Shown: positions 1 through 36,574 of the stretch, piece after piece | Position numbering within the stretch: the first letter of the stretch is position 1 | Layout of the letters: each line of letters starts with the position of its first letter | NCBI GenBank assembly: GCA_035509435.1 | Contig: DATJLR010000001.1 | Coordinates: 58,732-122,731, forward strand | DNA: 64,000 bases | Origin: Minisyncoccota bacterium | GTDB lineage: Bacteria > Patescibacteriota > Minisyncoccia > UBA6257 > 2-01-FULL-56-20 | Direction: 5' to 3' | Notes under the pieces: model-generated | Databases searched by the model: none | What the model saw: only the letters and a program-made list of their open reading frames with translations | What the model was told of the DNA's origin: nothing | Translations under genes and position numbers: made by a program

Positions 1-3000
1 CGATACGATCGCCGCGCCTTCCTCCGCAGCGCGATCCGTGCGCAAGGGCTTGGGCCACTCGTCCAAGTGCACCGATTCCTTCGTGCCGCCAAGCGGCCCG
101 TAGAACAGCTCCGAAAAGAACGGCGTGAAGGGCGCCATCAACGTAATGAGCGAGAGCAGCACATGGCCGAGCGTGGCCGAAGCCGCGCGATAATCGGCGT
201 CGCTCACCGGCCGCTGCAGGCGCCGCCGCGAGCGGCGGATATACCACCGGGAAAGGTCGTCCACCAGCGTTTCGATCTCGATCGCCGCCTCGCGGATCTC
301 GTAAGCGTCGAGCTTTTTTGAAACTTCGGCGTTCACCTGATCGAGCCGCGCGTTTATCCATTCATCCAACACGTTCGTGGGACCGTCGGAAAGTTTTGCT
401 TTCTGGTCTGCGTATGTTTTCCAAAATATAAAAGAATTGTAAACAATGAGGTGCACCCTCCGGAACGCTTTCGCGACCTCGGCCTCGTCAAAATTCTTCG
501 GCTCGCCGAGCGGCGATCCGGTAAAGAAATACCACCGCAGGGCATCCACTCCGTACTTATCGATGACCGCGAACGGCTCCACAATATTCCCTTTTGATTT
601 GGACATTTTTTGCCCGAATTTGTCGTTGATCAGGCCAAGCGCGATCACATTCTTATAAGGCGCTCCGTAGCCAAGCGCCGCCGCGATGGCAAAGAGCGTG
701 TAGAACCAGCCGCGCGTCTGGTCCATGCCTTCGGAAATATAATCGGCGGGATAGTCGAGGCCGGACAGCGTCGCGACATCCGTTTTGGGCACGGAGAACG
801 GGTAGTGCGCCTGCGCGTACGGCATTGCGCCGGAGTCGTACCACACGTCCGCGACTTCCGGCACACGCGCCATCGTTGCCGCGCACTTTGGGCACGGCGG
901 GGAAATATCATCGGCGAACGGCCGATGGACATCGACCACGCCGGTGTCGTTGCGCGGGATCTTCTTTACGCCGAACGGCATCACTTCCGCAGGCTTTATG
1001 AACATGCCGCCGCCCTCCTCTTTTTTCTCCGCCGCCTGCTTCTCGCTCCATCCGAGCGCCGCCTGCGCGAGCATCCAAATGGTATCCTCGTGGCTTACGA
1101 TCAAAATATTCTTTCCGTGATGCTTCGCCTCCGTTTCCTCCAAGAAATTCCATGCGCGGGTGCGGACGTCGCGATACGACTCGCTCTTCTCGTCCACGCG
1201 CCCGGCAAACCGGCTCTCAAGTGTCGGAAATATCTTCCCGATCTCTATCGATGGCTTTCCGGAAAGGCCGCCGAAGTTGACCTCGCGGAGGCGCTTGTCA
1301 AAATGGACGGGAATGCCCAGTTCGCTCGCGATGATCTCCGCCGATTCCTTCGTGCGAAGAAGGTCGGAGGCGAAAACAAGATCTATCTTATCTTTTTTAA
1401 GTCCCTTGGCGGCTTCTACGACCTGCTCTTTCCCGTTCGGGGTAAGATGCGAATTCTGATCGCCGGAATCGACGATCTTGAATATGATATTTTCCGACTC
1501 CCCGTGCCGCATCGCCCAATAATTATTTCTTGAACCTCCGGCCAAACGGTCCAATTCGTCCAAACCGTCCACCACTTCGGTGTGGCCGCACTCCTTGCAT
1601 TCCCAGATCGGCAGCGGCGCGCCCCAATACCGTTCGCGGGACAGGTTCCAGTCCTTCACCTCGCGCAGCCATTCGCCGAAACGCCCCGTCTTCACGTGCT
1701 TCGGCGTCCAGTTGACGGTTTCATTGTTCTCCAATAATTTCTCGCGCAGCTTCGACATTTCGATGAACCACGATGACCGCGCATAGTAGAGAATGGCCGT
1801 GCCGCACCGCCAGCAGAACGGGTATTCGTGCACGTACGGCTCCGTCCGCAACAGATTCCCGTTCTCGCGAAGATGATCGAAGATGTGTTCCTCCGTCTCT
1901 TTGGATTTCACGTATTGCCCCGCCAACCCCGCGACCTCCTTCGTGAACTTTCCGGCCTCGTCAACCGTGTGATATTCCGGCAGCCCTACCTGTTTGCCGA
2001 GCGCATAGTCGTCCTCGCCATACATCACGGCGGTATGCACGACGCCCGTGCCGTCGGTCGTCGTCACAAAACCGGCGGGATAGACCTTGTATGATCTTTC
2101 CGACCTGAGCGGCGCAATATCAAAAAGCGGTTCGTACTCCAAACCGACCAGCTGCGAACCGGACAGGTCGTATGATTTTTCTGCGCCGGAAAAGCCGAGG
2201 TCGTTCAACCGGTCCACCGCCGCGATAAGATATTCCCCTTCGTGCTCGAACGCGCGATATGCAATATCGGCCCCAACAGCAAGCGCGACATTTCCCGGTA
2301 ATGTCCACGGCGTCGTCGTCCACGACAGGATATACACCTTATCATCCGGCGCGATGACATGGTCCCCGATCTTCTGTCCCGCTTTTAATTTGAATTTCAC
2401 ATATACCGACGTATCGCTCACCTCTTTGTATCCCTGCGCGAGTTCATGCGAAGAAAGCGACGTGCCGTCGCGCGTGCACCACGGCACCACTTTGAATCCT
2501 TTATAAAGCAATCCGCGCTTATGGATCTGCGACAGCGTCCACCAAATGGACTCGATGTACTCGGGCTCGTACGTCACATATGCGTTCTTGAAATCAAGCC
2601 AGTAGCCGATGCGGCGCGTCATCCGTTCCCACTCGTCCTTATAGATCCACACCTGCTCCATCGCCTTCTCGTTGAAGAGCTTGACTCCGAGCTCCTCGAT
2701 GTCTTTCTTTGACTTGAGGCCGAGCGCTTTTTCCGTCGCGATCTCCACCGGAAGGCCGTGCGTGTCCCATCCGGCGCGGCGCGGCACTTCGAATCCCTGC
2801 ATCGTCTTGTATCGCAAAATAACATCCTTTACGATGCGACTGATGACGTGATGGATCGCGGGCTTGCCATTGGCGTACGGCGGCCCTTCATAAAAGATGA
2901 ATTTTGGGGCACCGCTCTCTTTTTCGATCGATTTTTCAAAAATATGCCGTTCATCCCAAAACGTCAGGACCTTCTCTTCTAATTCAGGAAGGTCAAATTC

Positions 3001-3063
3001 TCCTTCATGAAGGAATACCTTCGGATTCGCATTTTTTTCAGAAATCTCCTTTGCCATTACATT
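1..3063 (-). CDS. ileS: Isoleucyl-tRNA synthetase, type 2-like. N-terminal ~1020 aa are in the window; the 3' end runs off the window start. Carries an inserted histidine-phosphatase (PGAM-like) domain.
   Basis: Reverse-strand translation from ATG at 3063 gives MAKEISEKNANPKVFLHEGEFDL...PPYANGKPAIHHV (HIGH-like). It continues through WGAPLPIWECKECGHTEVV, DVHRPFADD...CPKCAAT...ADVWYDSGAMPYAQ, KMSKSKGNIV and an anticodon-binding region. No in-frame stop before position 1, and no listed minus-strand ORF, which is consistent with the ORF running off the edge. Confidence 0.85.
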
Positions 3064-3127: not shown

Positions 3128-4861
3128 CTAGATCTTTTCAAGCGTGCGAACGCCGAGCAGGCCGAGCCCTTTTTGCAGCACGCGCGCGGCGACGGCGACG
3201 AGCGCAAGGCGGCCGCGGCGGCGCGCGGCGGCGTCGTCCTTGAGGATCGGCGTCGCTTCGTAGAATTTGTTCGCGGCGACGGCGAGCTTGTAAAGATAGA
3301 CGGCGAGCGTGCTTGTGGAATATTGCTCGCCTGCGCGCGCCACCACATCCGGAAACTCGAACAACCTTCTCATGAGCGCGAGCTCGGTCGTGTGCGCAAG
3401 CGTTGCCGCCTCGTCGGCGCTCAACTTTACCGGCGGATTTTTTCCGCCGTCATCGGCAACGCCCGCCTTCCGCAAAATGCTCTTGAGCCGCGCATAGGTA
3501 TATTGTAGATAGGGCGCGCTGTCGCCCCCGAAATCCAGCATTTTCTCCCAGTTGAACACGATGTCTGTCATGCGATTCTCTTTGAGGTCGTTGTACTTGA
3601 GCGCCCCGAGCGCCACCGCATCCGCAACTTCCGTCTTCTCTCCGGACGAGAGTGCGGGATTTTTGGCATCGATCACTTCGCGCGCCTTGATCACCGCTTC
3701 GCCGATCACTTCTTCCAATAATTGCGCGGTGCCCTCGCGCGTGGAGAATTTTTTGCCGCCGCTTCCCAGTACAAGGCCGTACTTCACGTGCTTCAGCTCT
3801 GTTCCATCGCCGAGGCCCAAGAGCTTCGCGACCGCAAACAACTGCTCGAACGCAAGCGCCTGCTCGTTGGCCACCACGTATAATATCTTTGCCGGTTCGT
3901 ACTTTTTGAGGCGATACCGGAGGTTCGCGATGTCGCGGGTAAGATACAAGCTTGCGCCGTCGGACTTCTGGATGAGCGCCGGGGGCAATCCCGCAGCGTC
4001 AAGCGAAACGATGACCGCCCCCTCGCTCCGTTCGGCGATGCCCTTCTTGAGCAGTTCCGCGACGGTCGCATCCATCTCACGCTCAAAGTGGCTCTCGCCG
4101 ATCCACACGTCAAAATCCACGCCGAGCACCGCGTACAGGCGTTCGAACTCCTCGAGCGATTCTTTCTTGAACCACTCCCACAGCTTGCGGTTCTCGCGAT
4201 CGCCGTCCTCCAGTTTTTTAAACTCTTCCTGCCCCCGCTTTTCGAGCGTCGGGTCGTTCTTCATCTCCTCATGGAAGCGCACATAGAGCTTTTGCAATTC
4301 GTTGATGGGGGCCGATTCCACTTTTTTCTTGTCGCCCCACAGTTTGTACGCGGCGATGAGCTTGCCGAACTGCGTCCCCCAGTCGCCCAGATAGTTCCAC
4401 CGCACCACGCGATATCCGGAAAGCTCCAAAATATTCGCGAGCGCGGCGCCGATGATCGTCGTGCGCATGTGGCCGAGATGCATCGGCTTCGCGATGTTCG
4501 CCGACGAGTATTCCACGATCGCGGTGCAGCCCGCGCCAACGTCGCCCGCGCCATAGTTTTTGTCCGCCGCGATGCGCCGCAGCTCCGCCTGCATCGTAGC
4601 GTCGCTCAGCCAGAAATTGATAAAGCCGGGCGCGGCGGCCTCCACTTTGTGAAAAAATCCCGCAGGCGCGCCGGCGGCGATCTGCGCGGCATACTCTTTG
4701 GCGAGGTCGAGCGGCGGCATTTTCTTGATCTTCGCCTGACGCATCGCGAAGTTCGTTGAATAATGACCGAAAAGTTCCCCGTCGGGGACGGAGATATCGA
4801 TCGACGCATCCGCGGCGAACATCTTTTTCAATAATTGGGCCAATTGCGCGTTCATTGACAA
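3128..4861 (-). CDS. argS: Arginyl-tRNA synthetase
   Basis: 577 aa. HIGH-region ANIAKPMHLGHMR, DWGTQFG motif, and overall ArgRS architecture including a C-terminal DALR-type anticodon-binding domain. Confidence 0.85.
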   Translation of the reverse strand: MSMNAQLAQLLKKMFAADASIDISVPDGELFGHYSTNFAMRQAKIKKMPPLDLAKEYAAQIAAGAPAGFFHKVEAAAPGFINFWLSDATMQAELRRIAADKNYGAGDVGAGCTAIVEYSSANIAKPMHLGHMRTTIIGAALANILELSGYRVVRWNYLGDWGTQFGKLIAAYKLWGDKKKVESAPINELQKLYVRFHEEMKNDPTLEKRGQEEFKKLEDGDRENRKLWEWFKKESLEEFERLYAVLGVDFDVWIGESHFEREMDATVAELLKKGIAERSEGAVIVSLDAAGLPPALIQKSDGASLYLTRDIANLRYRLKKYEPAKILYVVANEQALAFEQLFAVAKLLGLGDGTELKHVKYGLVLGSGGKKFSTREGTAQLLEEVIGEAVIKAREVIDAKNPALSSGEKTEVADAVALGALKYNDLKENRMTDIVFNWEKMLDFGGDSAPYLQYTYARLKSILRKAGVADDGGKNPPVKLSADEAATLAHTTELALMRRLFEFPDVVARAGEQYSTSTLAVYLYKLAVAANKFYEATPILKDDAAARRRGRLALVAVAARVLQKGLGLLGVRTLEKI

Positions 4862-5149: not shown

Positions 5150-5599
5150 ATGGATACGCGAACGGAAACCATCGCCGAGAACCGCCGCGCGCGCTTTGAT
5201 TACGAGATAGGGCAAACGTACGAGGCAGGCATCGAACTGCAGGGGCACGAAGTGAAAAGCGCGAAAGGCGGCCGGCTTCAGATCGCGGGAGCGCATGCGA
5301 TCATCCGCGGCGGCGAGGCCTGGCTCGTGAACTCGCATATCCCCCAGTACCAGCCGGGCAATACGCCGCCGGACTACGAAGAAGATCGCGCACGGCGATT
5401 GCTCCTCTCGCGCGATGAAATAAAAGAGTTGCAAGGCGCGCTCGTGGACAAATCCCGCCACGCGATCCCCCTTCGCGCGTATCTCAAACACGGACTGATA
5501 AAACTGGAGCTCGGCCTGGGCCGGTCGCGGCGGAAATCCGACAAACGCGATGCGATCAAAAAGCGGGCGCACCAGCGCGAGATCCGGCGCGGAGAATAA
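5150..5599 (+). CDS. smpB: SsrA-binding protein SmpB
   Basis: 149 aa with IAENRRARFDYEI...GIELQGHEVKS...RRLLLSRDEIKEL...KRDAIKKR, the typical SmpB signature. Confidence 0.85.
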   Translation: MDTRTETIAENRRARFDYEIGQTYEAGIELQGHEVKSAKGGRLQIAGAHAIIRGGEAWLVNSHIPQYQPGNTPPDYEEDRARRLLLSRDEIKELQGALVDKSRHAIPLRAYLKHGLIKLELGLGRSRRKSDKRDAIKKRAHQREIRRGE

Positions 5600-7364: not shown

Positions 7365-8366
7365 CTACTTCTGTCCCAACTTCAACACCTTCATGTATTC
7401 ATCGCCGTAAGTGAGAGACATGTCGATCGAGGGAGCGATCAGAATGTACTTGCCATGCGGATTGGTATATTCCTCCAGTTCCCCGCTCTCAGAGAGAGAA
7501 CGAAACCGCTGGAGACCCGCCTGCACGGCAGTGCCGCAGCTCGGGCCGAATAGGCGTCTGACCGCGAGGATCATCTTCCGGCTCATTGCAAACGAGTCGT
7601 ATGAACTGCACAGAACCGGTCCATGAGCTCCGATGACGCTTTTCCAGTCGAAGGAAATGTCCCGCTCAACATCCGTGACGGTGCGAACTCCAGGAACTGG
7701 ATTGTCTTTGTCTTTGCACGCACCTCCGATGATGTGAAGTTTTGGAAAGGCATTTTTCAACGTCTCGTATGCAGCACAAATCATAGAAGTCGTTCCCATG
7801 GCAGCGGAAAAGAACGAAGGAACTTCGTCCATGCTTTCCATCTCGTTGATAAGATGGTACATGGTGCGATTTTGCCCCTTGATACTTCCCCGCTCTTTGT
7901 ACTGGTTAATGAACACGCCAACGCCTTCTCTTTCCAGCTCGGCGGCGCGTTCAAGGGTGGTTTGACCAGGTCGCGGGTACTCAATCTCAGCGCCAGGCAC
8001 AAGAAGTTGTGCTTTTTTGCCGTCCGGAACGGACGAGTTCATCACCGCGATCACCTTTTTGATACCGAACGCATCCTTGCTGTACGCGAAATTGACCGCC
8101 GTGTTCCCGGAGCCGGGCACAATCGCCACAACCCCTGGATAGATCCTTCCTTCTTTCTCTGCGTCCAAACAAAGCTGGACGGCAGGAAAGCGCTTTCCAT
8201 TGCCGCCCTCCCCCTCGTGGAGCGGCAATACGTAGATTTCGAGCCGCTCTGATCCGCGAAGGTCTGCCACCGAATCCTTAATCGACTCGGGCAGTTTGAC
8301 CAACGGAGCAAAGTGGTTGATCGAGGTCAAAACCTTCCTGCGTAATTCAAAGTCGATAAGACCCAT
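7365..8366 (-). CDS. PLP-dependent enzyme of the tryptophan-synthase-beta / cysteine-synthase fold
   Basis: Motifs VPGSGNTAVNFA (cf. SGNTG) and GPSCGTAVQAG, typical of fold-type II PLP enzymes. Confidence 0.45.
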   Translation of the reverse strand: MGLIDFELRRKVLTSINHFAPLVKLPESIKDSVADLRGSERLEIYVLPLHEGEGGNGKRFPAVQLCLDAEKEGRIYPGVVAIVPGSGNTAVNFAYSKDAFGIKKVIAVMNSSVPDGKKAQLLVPGAEIEYPRPGQTTLERAAELEREGVGVFINQYKERGSIKGQNRTMYHLINEMESMDEVPSFFSAAMGTTSMICAAYETLKNAFPKLHIIGGACKDKDNPVPGVRTVTDVERDISFDWKSVIGAHGPVLCSSYDSFAMSRKMILAVRRLFGPSCGTAVQAGLQRFRSLSESGELEEYTNPHGKYILIAPSIDMSLTYGDEYMKVLKLGQK

Positions 8367-11749: not shown

Positions 11750-13027
11750 TCACTTTCCTCCAGCATACATTGCGGCGATCTCCGCAGCGGACATGGCGCG
11801 GCCATACACGCGCACGTCGTCGATCAGCCCCGTAAACGGATTATCGCCGGCATATATCTTCCCGCCGATCGTCGTCGTCGTGAGCGCAACATTCGGAGTT
11901 GAAGGGGTGTACGACGCCTCGTAGACGCCGTTCACGTATCCACGCTCCGTGGAACCGTCGAACGTGACCGCGATATTGTTCCACCCGTTCACGATGTGGG
12001 TGGAATACCACGAAAGGTCGTTCCCCCAGAAATAGTTTACCAACTGGTTGCCGGAACCGCCGGTCCTTAAAACGTTCGTCGCGCTGCCGACGCCCACCGA
12101 TCCCCATCCCACAATGTCCGCCGTGTAGACCGTCGAGGTAATGCCGTTCGGAAGATACACCCACACCCACTTCGTGAACGGGGACGCGCCGACGGGGACG
12201 CTGCGATCGAACACGCTCACGGCGTCCAAACTTCCGTCGAAGGCTCCCGCGTAGAGGCCGATCTTTCCCGCCGAATAATATCCGCCCAGACTTCCGACCT
12301 GTGCGCCGCTCCAACTCCCCGTCGCGTTGTTGCCCGAATAATCATAGGCGATCGTGCCGGTCCCCTCGTCAAAGCTCCAATCTCCCGCAAGCGTAGGATC
12401 GCCGTAGTCCAGCGGCTCCAAGGCAAGATTGGTGCCCTTCGCATACACGGTCGCCAAGGCCGACCCGTCAGGGCCAACGACGTCATTGGATCCTCCCAGC
12501 TTATATTTCGACGACTCCATCACCGCCGTGAACTCATACTGGCCGTTGCTCGCCATATAAGTGTAATAATCCCGGGACGAAGAAGTGTTCACGGGATCGA
12601 TGGGCAGTGCCGAAAGCGGAGCGCCGCTCGATATCGATTGGAAGTTCACCGGGATCCACCCCGTGCCGTTCACGCTGCGATACGTGGAACTTGCCGCGCA
12701 ATGATAAGTGTAATTGGCAGGAAGCGCGAGAAGCCCCATAGTGCCGCAATTTGTCCCCGCCGTCGTCGTGGCGTTCGGGTCCGGAAGGGAAACATACACG
12801 ACGGAAGAAGACCCCAGGGAAAAGGCTGCCGCAGACGCCTGGTCTACGCTATATACATTCAACGCCTCTACCAATGTGCTCATATCGGAGATACGGCCAG
12901 AATCGCGGGATTGGGCAAGAAGCTGCGCGGGATTCAAGGTAAGCACGACCACGACAGCAAGTATGGCGATGATCGCGATGACAACCAAAAGCTCTATGAG
13001 AGTAAATCCCTTGCGAAAGGCGTCCAT
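11750..13027 (-). CDS. Type IV pilin / pseudopilin with a C-terminal LamG-like (concanavalin A-like) domain
   Basis: N-terminal prepilin signal RKG|FTLIELLVVIAIIAILA (class III signal with Glu at +5). C-terminal jelly-roll motif LIDDVRVYGRAMSAAEI. Confidence 0.75.
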   Translation of the reverse strand: MDAFRKGFTLIELLVVIAIIAILAVVVVLTLNPAQLLAQSRDSGRISDMSTLVEALNVYSVDQASAAAFSLGSSSVVYVSLPDPNATTTAGTNCGTMGLLALPANYTYHCAASSTYRSVNGTGWIPVNFQSISSGAPLSALPIDPVNTSSSRDYYTYMASNGQYEFTAVMESSKYKLGGSNDVVGPDGSALATVYAKGTNLALEPLDYGDPTLAGDWSFDEGTGTIAYDYSGNNATGSWSGAQVGSLGGYYSAGKIGLYAGAFDGSLDAVSVFDRSVPVGASPFTKWVWVYLPNGITSTVYTADIVGWGSVGVGSATNVLRTGGSGNQLVNYFWGNDLSWYSTHIVNGWNNIAVTFDGSTERGYVNGVYEASYTPSTPNVALTTTTIGGKIYAGDNPFTGLIDDVRVYGRAMSAAEIAAMYAGGK

Positions 13028-15982: not shown

Positions 15983-16489
15983 CTATCCCCGCTTTCCCTG
16001 TCTCGCGACAAAGTGGAAACTTGTGTACGAAAGATATGCGGCGACGATGACGCCCACCCAGCTGACCCACATGGGCGCCACCCAGCCGTCGATCGCCACC
16101 GACCACCCGAACACCAGGCGGAGGAAATGGACGATCGCGACGATGCCCATGATGATGCCGACCACGAAGAACAACGCCTTGCTCGACGCATGCGGTTCCA
16201 GGATGTCCGGCGTCCATGCGTAATGGATGAGGATAAGGAGCACGAGCGCATCAAGTCCGCACCACAGCCACGCCGACTGCGTGGTGATCCAAAGGCCAAA
16301 GACGGTCGCGGGCAACGAGCCCGCCGCCAAAAGCCAGAGTCCCACAAACAGGTCTGCCGCAACGACCCCCGCAAAAAACTTCGCCGCCTCGCGAAGGAAT
16401 TTAGTGTGTTTGGTCATGCTTTTAGTATAACAAAATGGCCCCGCCGAAATCGACGGGGCCACTGCAAAAAAGGAGCATTCAGGGGTCAA
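15983..16489 (-). CDS. Hypothetical polytopic membrane protein. The start is probably the internal M at about 16417.
   Basis: Four hydrophobic helices and no recognizable motif. Confidence 0.35.
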   Translation of the reverse strand: MTPECSFFAVAPSISAGPFCYTKSMTKHTKFLREAAKFFAGVVAADLFVGLWLLAAGSLPATVFGLWITTQSAWLWCGLDALVLLILIHYAWTPDILEPHASSKALFFVVGIIMGIVAIVHFLRLVFGWSVAIDGWVAPMWVSWVGVIVAAYLSYTSFHFVARQGKRG

Positions 16490-17250
16490 TCACTTTTGTG
16501 ATATTTGTTGACGTACCTCACCATCGATTGGCGGGTTTCCCGATCAATGAACTTCACGGCGATCGCGACGCGGTTATCTTCGCTGAGGGATTGCCACAGC
16601 CCACCGAGAACATCCGTCGCGACGCCATCATAGAACGGAATCAGGCGAGGTTCGCCGCGAAACGTGGTCGGTTCCTTCGCATCCCATTCATAAGTGGTGA
16701 TGCAATAACCGTATCCCGGCGGAAGCTCGTCGTAGAACCAGTAGCCGACGTCACACCCGTCGCCCGTTGGGGATTTGCGATGGATCGCGATCTCCGCAAA
16801 GGGCAGGTTGTCGCGAGTGCGGACGCCGCATGTAGCAGTGATGCGCGGGGTATAGATCGGTGAGTCCGGTTCATACGACATATCCCGCAGGGCATTCATG
16901 AGGACACCGTAATACCGTCCTGCGATCATGTCGGTCTGACTGCCGTTGCTCACCACAAACGCGCCTTTGTCCTGTAGCATCGCGTTATAGATGATCAACC
17001 TGGGATCTTCCACCTTTGAAGGATCGGCGGGTTCGGTGAACAAGCGCCCGGTCCGCGCCTCAAGTTCGAACACCCTGTTGCGGCTGTTCGAAGAGCGTCC
17101 CATGATCCAGTACACCTGGATCACATTTCGCCCCGTGGAATCGAGCCCAACCACGAGCCCCCTTCCGGGATATCGGCTCGCGCGCAGGGCCATAAAATTG
17201 GCGGTTGCCTCTGTGAGCAATGTCACTGCATCTCCTTTCCGGCAAAGCAT
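16486..17250 (-). CDS. Archaeal-type IMP cyclohydrolase PurO-like protein
   Basis: Motif-level match to PurO (PF07826, named from memory): VVSNGSQTDMIA, EPDSPIYTPRITA, ITTYEW. Confidence 0.55.
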   Translation of the reverse strand: MLCRKGDAVTLLTEATANFMALRASRYPGRGLVVGLDSTGRNVIQVYWIMGRSSNSRNRVFELEARTGRLFTEPADPSKVEDPRLIIYNAMLQDKGAFVVSNGSQTDMIAGRYYGVLMNALRDMSYEPDSPIYTPRITATCGVRTRDNLPFAEIAIHRKSPTGDGCDVGYWFYDELPPGYGYCITTYEWDAKEPTTFRGEPRLIPFYDGVATDVLGGLWQSLSEDNRVAIAVKFIDRETRQSMVRYVNKYHKSD

Positions 17251-25000: not shown

Positions 25001-25099
25001 TCTCGACTTCAACCACCCCTCGCGCTATGATGTAATCACAACTGAAAAGGATGCCTAAACCATCGCGGTAACGCGGTGGCATGGCGGAAGTGCACAAGT

Positions 25100-25143
25100 C
25101 CTACGAGGACAAAGAACCCATCACATGGGGCTGTCCTCGTAGG
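25100..25143. repeat. Perfect 12-bp inverted repeat (CCTACGAGGACA / TGTCCTCGTAGG) with a 20-nt spacer
   Basis: Read directly from the sequence. Intergenic, between the GHKL gene's terminator and the PH-SHOCT gene. Confidence 0.6.
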
Positions 25144-25246
25144 CCATGCCGGAAACGGCGTGGAGGGCGCAAGCTCTCACCCATGCGGTGGGTTCTTTGG
25201 TCGATAAGAAGCTCCTCCGCACGGGGAGCATTTCTATATCACCACC

Positions 25247-31687: not shown

Positions 31688-32014
31688 CGAATTAGCTTAA
31701 CTCCAATAATGCCGGATTTTTACTGAAAAATAAAGAGCTCGTCAAACAATCTGCGATTGGGAACTCCTGATCGGATTTACAAGCAAAATCGCTTATCTTA
31801 TAGTTAATCCACAACTAAATAGGGTTGCCTAAACTCAGCAATTTGCAGGGCATGGCACATAGAAAACCGATGAAGGCAGAAAGCTCTCAATCAGAGCCAC
31901 CTTCATCGGTCATATCTGGAAACGGATATGGGTCGCAAGACCAGCTGGTTGGGAGCTTTCTGGCATAAAACTCTCAACCGGCCCTAAAGGTCGGTTTTCG
32001 TTTTAAATAAAACC

Positions 32015-36256: not shown

Positions 36257-36574
36257 TGGTGGAAGCGGGCGGAATCGAACCGCCGTGTAAAGATAGTGCC
36301 GATGGGCCGTCTACGAGCGTAGTCTAGCGAATGCTAAGCGAGTGATCCTGTTTCTCGCGGCGCGCTTAGGATCGTCTGCGCGACGCCAGTTCCCTTATAT
36401 AAGACCGGTGACAGCCCAAGGAACCCGGACTGGCCGATCCCCGCGGTTACGCGTTAAGCGTAAGCGAGGGCTGGAACTCGGTTAGAGTTGGCAGTTGTAG
36501 TTTTTGCAGCGATAACGGCGCTGCGAACGGCTCGCAAACCCACGGATTGTCTTTATCGAAGCCAGTGCGCTCCC
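36257..36574 (-). ncRNA. ssrA: tmRNA (SsrA)
   Basis: The reverse complement begins GGGAGCGCACTGGCTTCGA. The 3' end has a T-arm GGCGGTTCGATTCCGCC, a 7-bp acceptor stem GGGAGCG/CGCTTCC, discriminator A and an encoded CCA. An internal reading frame ends ...PALAYA then TAA. Confidence 0.8.

Follow-up and report, generated by a model that had tools for sequence, protein, structure and literature searches.

The 64,000-nucleotide stretch of DNA analysed here (hereafter the window; contig DATJLR010000001.1 of assembly GCA_035509435.1, from a Minisyncoccota bacterium) carries at its left edge a gene, ileS, for an isoleucyl-tRNA synthetase (IleRS) that encloses a second enzyme. We regard it as near certain that a whole PhoE/CobC-like histidine phosphatase is nested in a surface loop of this IleRS and, judging from their conserved motifs, both the synthetase and the phosphatase parts look functional. 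Few enzymes are as conserved as the aminoacyl-tRNA synthetases, and the domains added to them are well studied in eukaryotes. Catalytic domains nested within a bacterial synthetase are rare. Here, throughout much of the Patescibacteria, an essential synthetase holds a second whole enzyme within its catalytic domain; the case combines a known enzyme, an undescribed nested catalytic domain and an unusually clear history of repeated evolution.

The gene lies on the minus strand, a point left unstated in an earlier sequence-only reading of this DNA, which had proposed an IleRS with an inserted phosphatase in an uninterrupted frame. Translation from window position 3057 to 1 indeed gives 1019 codons with zero stops, open at the left edge. 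The assignment to IleRS also holds. The product scores 820.8 bits against the ileS equivalog TIGR00392 of NCBIfam (cut-off 621.4) despite truncation of the window copy, KMSKS is present, the editing motifs WTTTPWTLPGN (Thr-rich) and GTGVVHTAVMYGEDDY are intact in the translation and every peptide quoted in the sequence-only reading is found there. In Pfam, the match to tRNA-synt_1 (E = 3.6e-117) is interrupted by His_Phos_1 and followed by Anticodon_1. The gene product is a type-2 IleRS. Its parts are listed here, with conservation counted among 179 aligned full-length phosphatase-bearing IleRS relatives and with Tth denoting the Thermus thermophilus enzyme (1ILE).

1..3057, minus strand: ileS coding sequence, the first 1019 of 1178 codons, with the 3' end past the left window edge (TIGR00392; identity with the database protein P0264).
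1549..3057, minus strand: IleRS residues 1-503, comprising the N-terminal Rossmann half, the CP1 editing domain, the first zinc knuckle and the first hairpin arm (1ILE residues 2-478).
1819-2433, minus strand: CP1 editing domain, residues ~209-413 (matches structures 1WK8 and 1UE0).
2848..2859, minus strand: class I signature AIHH, non-canonical and replacing HxGH, residues 67-70 (direct reading and alignment of relatives).
1588..1599, minus strand: first zinc knuckle, C487-K-E-C490, aligned to CQAC of Tth; cysteines kept in 169/179 and 162/179.
1..936, minus strand: IleRS residues 708-1019, comprising the HRPF..DVWYDSG strand, the second Rossmann half, KMSKS and the start of the anticodon-binding domain (Tth 488-789).
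883..894, minus strand: second zinc knuckle, C722-P-K-C725; cysteines kept in 164/179 and 167/179.
595-609, minus strand: KMSKS, residues 817-821 (read in the translation).

The sequence GTGVVHTA...DD can be read directly in the N-terminal half, and we take the Thr-rich motif and the conserved His and Asp of CP1 to have editing roles. The CxxC knuckles C487/C490 and C722/C725 presumably correspond to the second zinc site of the Thermus enzyme. At the class I signature, [G/A]xHH occurs in 141 of the 179 relatives and HxGH in 35. Replacement of the first and third positions of HXGH, giving A/GXHH, marks mupirocin hyper-resistant IleRS2 according to a published study (Brkic 2023; PMC10485003), and the window IleRS fits this definition of the subclass at the level of the motif. 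The NCBIfam exception model for the acquired mupirocin-resistance enzymes MupA/MupB gave 680-695 bits, short of its cut-off of 1900.

The phosphatase occupies the interval between the two halves of the synthetase.

937..1548, minus strand: histidine phosphatase module with linkers, residues 504-707 (PF00300; absent from Tth IleRS; free-standing homologues align end to end).
1036-1518, minus strand: Pfam core of the module, residues 514-674 (PF00300).
1501..1509, minus strand: R517-H518-G519, the phosphate-binding Arg and the nucleophile His; Arg in 178/179, His in 177/179.
1354..1356, minus strand: R568, second Arg of the phosphate pocket, in the motif SDLLRTKES; 177/179.
1282..1284, minus strand: E592, predicted proton donor, in the motif LREVNFG, aligned to PhoE; Glu in 173/179, Asp in 5/179.
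1090..1092, minus strand: H656, second catalytic His, in the motif IVSHED; 178/179.

When aligned with T. thermophilus IleRS, query residues 15-504 correspond to 2-478 and residues 708-1004 to 488-789, and 203 query residues stand opposite nine in the Thermus enzyme. The segment is thus not a normal connective peptide, the outcome against which the sequence-only reading had proposed this alignment. The interval that it had given for the insert, 950-1545, falls within the refined limits of 937-1548, and its placement at a zinc-binding segment proved exact: the module sits between the two retained CxxC knuckles, at the tip of the zinc hairpin before the DVWYDSG strand. The module matches PF00300 (His_Phos_1) with 128-133 bits (gathering threshold 21.7; E from 4e-37 to 2e-38, and 3.9e-37 in the profile search that had been suggested), and the match contains the RHG motif, the second Arg, the Glu and the C-terminal His. 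R517, H518, R568, E626 and H656 are retained in 177-178 of the 179 relatives, the level of conservation of KMSKS. The role of proton donor is assigned to E592 partly on what we take to be general for the family.

Structure prediction, also suggested earlier, returned a phosphatase fold. The AlphaFold2 model of the full protein has a mean predicted local distance difference test score (pLDDT) of 85.7, with 90-97 over the insert and both junctions, and the module modelled alone reaches 90.6. A Foldseek search with the module model gave probability 1.00 to 4IJ6, 4PZ9, 1H2E and 6NRU. Among close orthologues the phosphatase is 49% identical, the Rossmann halves 72-75% and the C-terminal domains 53%; by these values the phosphatase appears to behave as a constrained accessory domain.

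The earlier label of the insert as PGAM-like (phosphoglycerate mutase-like) stands at the level of the superfamily. As a subfamily assignment it fails, since all curated mutase and phosphatase cut-offs were missed. The models tried and rejected were CobC (TIGR03162; 81-86 against 162.9 bits), dPGM (TIGR01258; 30 against 81.7 bits), archaeal dPGM (NF038349; 77-82 against 225 bits), the phosphoserine phosphatase PspA (NF045917; 59-63 against 350 bits), GpmB (54-59 against 261 bits) and the phosphohistidine phosphatase SixA (TIGR00249; 29.9 against 74.5 bits, over the N-terminal third only). P0030, a free-standing homologue of the module, scored 98 bits with both CobC and archaeal dPGM. A structure search for the subfamily of the module returned generic family members only, and a viral structure library gave nothing useful. 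With all subfamily cut-offs missed, the substrate is therefore not transferable by homology.

We consider that a frameshift or an assembly chimera is ruled out by the open frame, an identical protein from a metagenome-assembled genome (MAG), orthologues (58-87%) from four data sources and uniform composition. The first 1019 residues of P0264 (1178 residues; 459,847-bp contig; NCBI MAG 'Candidatus Paceibacterota bacterium') match the window translation without a single difference, and the same architecture occurs in orthologues from independent assemblies; for these reasons an artefact can be set aside. The survey of relatives proposed in the sequence-only reading found PF00300 together with PF00133 in all 120 of the 120 best IleRS homologues (58-100% identity; NCBI, JGI, ENA and Logan assemblies). 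Among representatives of clusters at 50% identity there were 170 matches at E<=1e-30; of the 150 listed, nearly all span both IleRS flanks and the insert, in proteins of about 1100-1250 residues. The architecture is thereby counted in at least 150 clusters. The insert has a GC content of 0.552 and a GC content at third codon positions (GC3) of 0.70, against 0.564 and 0.72 for the rest of ileS. A search for flanking repeats that would point to recent mobile insertion gave nothing meaningful, only chance matches of 12-17 nt. A 307-residue open frame at window 610-1533 on the plus strand, opposite the phosphatase insert, is a shadow of the GC3-rich ileS and not a gene.

The architecture extends through Patescibacteria of the Paceibacteria/Parcubacteria type and is kept in relatives as distant as ~34% identity (phosphatase) or 44-47% (Rossmann core). 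Short 'fragment' homologues were considered as split genes and rejected; they come from the frameshift-ridden long-read assemblies L001 and L002 (ENA ERZ25039521 / ERZ25039540), in whose long contigs nearly every gene is in pieces, those for SmpB, ArgRS, IleRS, TrpRS and RNase J among them. Such broken genes are typical of uncorrected long-read indel errors and leave misleading 'short proteins' in databases.

All phosphatase copies in 247 retrieved IleRS proteins were mapped to P0264 numbering, and they fall at the following sites.

Site A, 503/708: 236 of about 256 copies.
Site A', 725/729, directly past the second knuckle: P0256.
Site B, ~750/770, after SGxMPYA: P0207, P0250 and P0256.
Site C, ~884/895: the sole copy in P0232 and the second copy in P0148, P0207 and P0250.

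The DVWYDSG strand of the catalytic domain has site A on one side and site B on the other, and site C is the loop joining helices 1 and 2 of the anticodon-binding domain in the predicted secondary structure. Tandem pairs occupy site A in P0227, P0228 and P0259, and P0202 holds four phosphatase stretches. Copies that share one protein are 18-28% identical. The full catalytic set is present in every copy except two truncated stretches (P0202 copy 4 and P0227 copy 1) and, through E626Q, P0256 copy 1. Judging from these positions, the link between phosphatase and IleRS is one that arose several times.

In addition to its phosphatase, one IleRS (P0200, 1561 residues) contains two GNAT regions, at residues ~305-413 and ~965-1000. 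Since P0200 carries these regions and NCBIfam holds a model named ileS_w_GNAT, the IleRS of these bacteria looks like a hotspot for the nesting of enzyme domains.

The nearest non-fused homologues of the insert are Patescibacteria proteins of 188-196 residues, 35-42% identical to it in the domain alignment, and they align with it from the first residue (MKLNNKYY against RNNYW) to the last strand. At the loci of two of them, P0030 and P0019, argS, the phosphatase gene and ileS lie on one strand with gaps of a few bases, and the IleRS, of 946-977 residues, has no insert. We scanned one genome per GTDB species with the alignment of the free-standing proteins as the query, mapping ArgRS, phosphatase and the IleRS halves, and obtained 52 loci. 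About 40 of these, mostly from Staskawiczbacteria, have the order argS-phosphatase-ileS with an insert-free IleRS. The phosphatase lies within ileS at six loci, including records labelled Parcubacteria, Moraniibacteriota and Patescibacteria group. At two loci (L048 and L052) ileS is inverted and the argS-phosphatase pair is kept; at L047 argS and the phosphatase share a contig that lacks ileS, and at L049, L056 and L058 neither neighbour of the phosphatase was detected. The corresponding neighbour in the window is the following.

3128..4861, minus strand: argS, 577 residues, 70 nt upstream of ileS (open reading frame; PF00750, arginyl-tRNA synthetase; synteny).

No free-standing copy of the phosphatase is present between argS and ileS in the window. 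Because the free order in sisters is argS-phosphatase-ileS and argS abuts ileS in the window, the most economical interpretation is that the gene upstream of ileS has apparently moved into ileS. The route may have been, for example, a tandem duplication of the phosphatase-ileS pair and then two deletions that kept the frame.

The slot between a free phosphatase gene and ileS (L013, L017, L026, L027, L024 and L014/L023) differs in gene content from genome to genome. It holds genes for HD_3/YfbR-like, NUDIX, CYTH, HAD and PALP proteins, a Fic-motif protein and unknowns, several of them phosphohydrolases. We considered these genes as conserved partners and rejected the idea on account of their variable content; the apparent enrichment of nucleotide hydrolases may be due to chance in a small sample. 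The records of L011, L012, L018, L045 and P0007 are titled 'Saccharibacteria', 'Gammaproteobacteria' or 'Sedimentisphaerales', MAG labels that look unreliable given the gene content and the similarity to Staskawiczbacteria/Paceibacteria loci.

As to function, the reading that we favour, tentatively and as possible rather than probable when taken as a whole, is that of a bifunctional protein, a working IleRS joined to a competent phosphomonoesterase, with the coupling under selection and with a small-molecule substrate. The module would be an active phosphomonoesterase operating through a phospho-H518 intermediate, with E592 as the acid. Its physical tie to IleRS would be selected and not accidental. 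What the tether would provide is 1:1 co-expression and co-localisation, more likely than substrate channelling, since the domain sits in loops that are far apart in sequence and in several copies. The likeliest substrate would be a small phosphomonoester, perhaps of nucleotide type (AMP or a different nucleoside monophosphate, for instance), a guess that we hold weakly.

Several considerations weigh against this view. No curated phosphatase or mutase threshold was reached, so any proposed substrate would be a guess, and the specificity for IleRS has no explanation, AMP and pyrophosphate being common to all synthetases. A free gene lies beside ileS, so that repeated fusion could reflect opportunity and not selection, and synteny inside one order could be a matter of inheritance alone. 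The phosphatase also remains beside argS where ileS is inverted or absent (L047, L048 and L052) and, since the adjacency to argS persists without ileS, the primary partner of the phosphatase is uncertain.

Opportunity alone might have been sufficient. A housekeeping phosphatase encoded upstream of ileS could have become nested by local duplication and deletion and been fixed by drift in small symbiont populations, with IleRS giving constitutive expression and with no mechanistic link between the two. We consider this rather unlikely. In its favour, adjacency supplies the opportunity, the scatter of sites implies that no particular geometry is needed, the phosphatase is closest to ordinary metabolic enzymes of its kind and changes more quickly than the core of IleRS, and the phosphatase-ileS slot accepts unrelated genes across genomes. 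However, the in-frame nesting of 200 residues needs two precise junctions and is likelier to be harmful than neutral, yet it has reached fixation at four sites or more and has survived deep divergence. The divergent paralogous copies have, moreover, all ended in IleRS and not elsewhere. An N-terminal read-through fusion, the easiest product of adjacency, was not seen among the retrieved proteins, the query having been built on internal flanks and ranking such fusions low.

The phosphatase might also be a genuine second activity of the synthetase on which isoleucine charging in these ultra-small bacteria depends, acting on tRNA-Ile (for example, on a blocking terminal phosphate) or on a phosphorylated intermediate or inhibitor bound to IleRS, and this dependence would be the cause of its repeated recruitment as a neighbour gene, at four sites and in as many as four copies. 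We think this unlikely; if true, it would constitute a new class of synthetase accessory activity.

Another proposal is that the module strips a 3'-terminal phosphate (2',3'-cyclic-derived or 3') or one added by a toxin from tRNA held by IleRS, so making the CCA end chargeable. An analogy would be the HD domain, a phosphohydrolase, in bacterial CCA-adding enzymes. Tethering is most helpful with macromolecular substrates, the position of sites A and B on either side of the DVWYDSG strand in the catalytic domain would suit such a role and a phosphatase fused to a nucleic-acid enzyme has a precedent in NF005567, to which there is a partial match of 79 bits. Site C, however, is in the anticodon-binding domain, probably a long way from the acceptor end. 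Homologues of the free-standing kind have a basic charge (median net value +8.2 per 100 residues) that places them in the top 8-15% of local open reading frames; this is weak evidence, confounded by AT-rich genomes with Lys-rich proteins, and the module of the window is near neutral (pI 6.7). To our knowledge, no member of this phosphatase fold group acts on RNA ends. The closest folds are those of small-molecule enzymes, and end-healing would be needed for all tRNAs and not for tRNA-Ile alone. We judge this proposal to be distinctly improbable.

Very improbable, in our estimation, is a protein phosphatase or regulatory module that removes an inhibitory phosphate (placed, for example, by a HipA-like or Ser/Thr kinase) from IleRS or a partner, or that senses a phosphorylated metabolite. 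The histidine phosphatase superfamily does include the protein phosphatases SixA, PGAM5 and Sts-1, and a role in cis would account for the tethering. The match to the SixA profile is weak and misses its cut-off (29.9 against 74.5 bits), and the cap and length are of the PhoE type and not of the minimal SixA form. No kinase is conserved in the neighbourhoods examined, and multiple divergent copies are hard to account for in this way. There is scarcely any likelihood that the module is a non-catalytic dimerisation or scaffold element, for which position tolerance, tandem pairs that could form intramolecular dimers and the common dimerisation of small histidine phosphatases (PhoE, iPSP and GpgP are dimers) might be cited, given that both His (the nucleophile among them), both Arg and the Glu hardly vary across about 180 sequences or in any extra copy and that a scaffold would have no need of them.

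Returning to the bifunctional protein, the repeated linkage as neighbour gene and at four sites, in one to four copies with catalytic residues, is a strong comparative-genomic signal of functional partnership. It raises the matter of which phosphate ester is important to isoleucine charging in organisms of minimal metabolism. The loci also form a natural series in which the passage from neighbour gene to nested domain can be studied. A caution applies to annotation, in that metabolic reconstructions might miscount the nested domain as a phosphoglycerate mutase. Precomputed domain tables show the nested architecture; P0264 appears at NCBI only as 'class I tRNA ligase family protein', and its close homologues at JGI as 'isoleucyl-tRNA synthetase'. 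Literature searches found no paper describing a phosphatase nested in IleRS. The main text of the IleRS2 study (PMC10485003) does not mention a phosphatase domain, nor does the main text of a 2026 preprint annotating the domain architectures of 96,219 IleRS sequences, and the passages of PMC11685878 on CP and zinc terms make no mention of a nested phosphatase.

The remainder of the window provides some further observations. SmpB is encoded just upstream of argS-ileS (5150-5599, plus strand), and a smpB-argS-ileS neighbourhood is also present in L001 and L002. Near argS-ileS is a gene for a PALP-fold protein (7365-8366, minus strand) that is weakly cysteine-synthase-like (54 against 344 bits); in L002, too, a PALP gene is close to the cluster, and in L014 and L023 one stands immediately between the genes for the phosphatase and IleRS. 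The partner of SmpB, a tmRNA with the tag ANSNRVPALAYA, lies at 36257-36574 (minus strand). Two copies of LOOT RNA (RF03000), a small RNA family without assigned function, lie at 25052-25178 and 31826-31942, both on the plus strand, with 70 and 81 bits against a gathering threshold of 46.4. The gene at 11750-13027 (minus strand) encodes a type IV pilin-like protein that has an N_methyl motif and a fused Laminin_G_3 lectin-like domain. An IMP-cyclohydrolase-like protein is encoded at 16486-17250 (minus strand) and is of note because the lineage is supposed to be without purine synthesis.

Comparison with known systems places the synthetase part close to IleRS2 (structures 8C8U-8C9D and 1ILE). 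The best matches of the window protein in the PDB are 1ILE (736 bits) and the P. megaterium IleRS2, and it shares with this type the AIHH signature, KMSKS, an intact CP1 editing motif and, in P0264, the type-2 C-terminus PF19302. The solved and described enzymes differ in having nothing at the tip of the zinc hairpin, where Tth has nine residues. NF040702 (ileS_w_GNAT) likewise describes a bacterial IleRS with a nested second enzyme domain, but that domain is an N-acetyltransferase; the window protein scores 319 against 1999 bits and has no GNAT match in Pfam.

The phosphatase part resembles the PhoE/CobC/iPSP (PspA)/GpgP/HFP group in its length of ~200 residues, its fold, the R-H...R...E...H set and a PhoE-like size and cap length. 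The nearest solved relatives are iPSP (4IJ5), GpgP (4PZ9), PhoE (1H2E), the riboflavin-pathway HFP (9MMH) and CobC (6NRU), with TM scores of 0.67-0.77; these are small, usually dimeric, small-molecule phosphomonoesterases. It departs from them in sharing only 24-28% identity and in being nested in IleRS or encoded between argS and ileS. The RNase H/acid phosphatase NF005567 (Rv2228c type) is similar in joining a CobC-like phosphatase to a nucleic-acid enzyme, and its phosphatase half gives a partial match of 79-83 bits. In that protein, however, the fusion is terminal and the partner is different, and the cut-off of 326 bits was missed.

The insertion modules of class Ia synthetases, such as CP2/CP3 and INS in ARD2 of IleRS2, are comparable in that they are lineage-specific and occupy surface loops of the catalytic and anticodon domains; the leucine-specific domain of LeuRS is another. 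Such modules are small, have no enzymatic activity and serve to adjust tRNA binding or catalysis, whereas the module described here is a full enzyme with an active site of its own.

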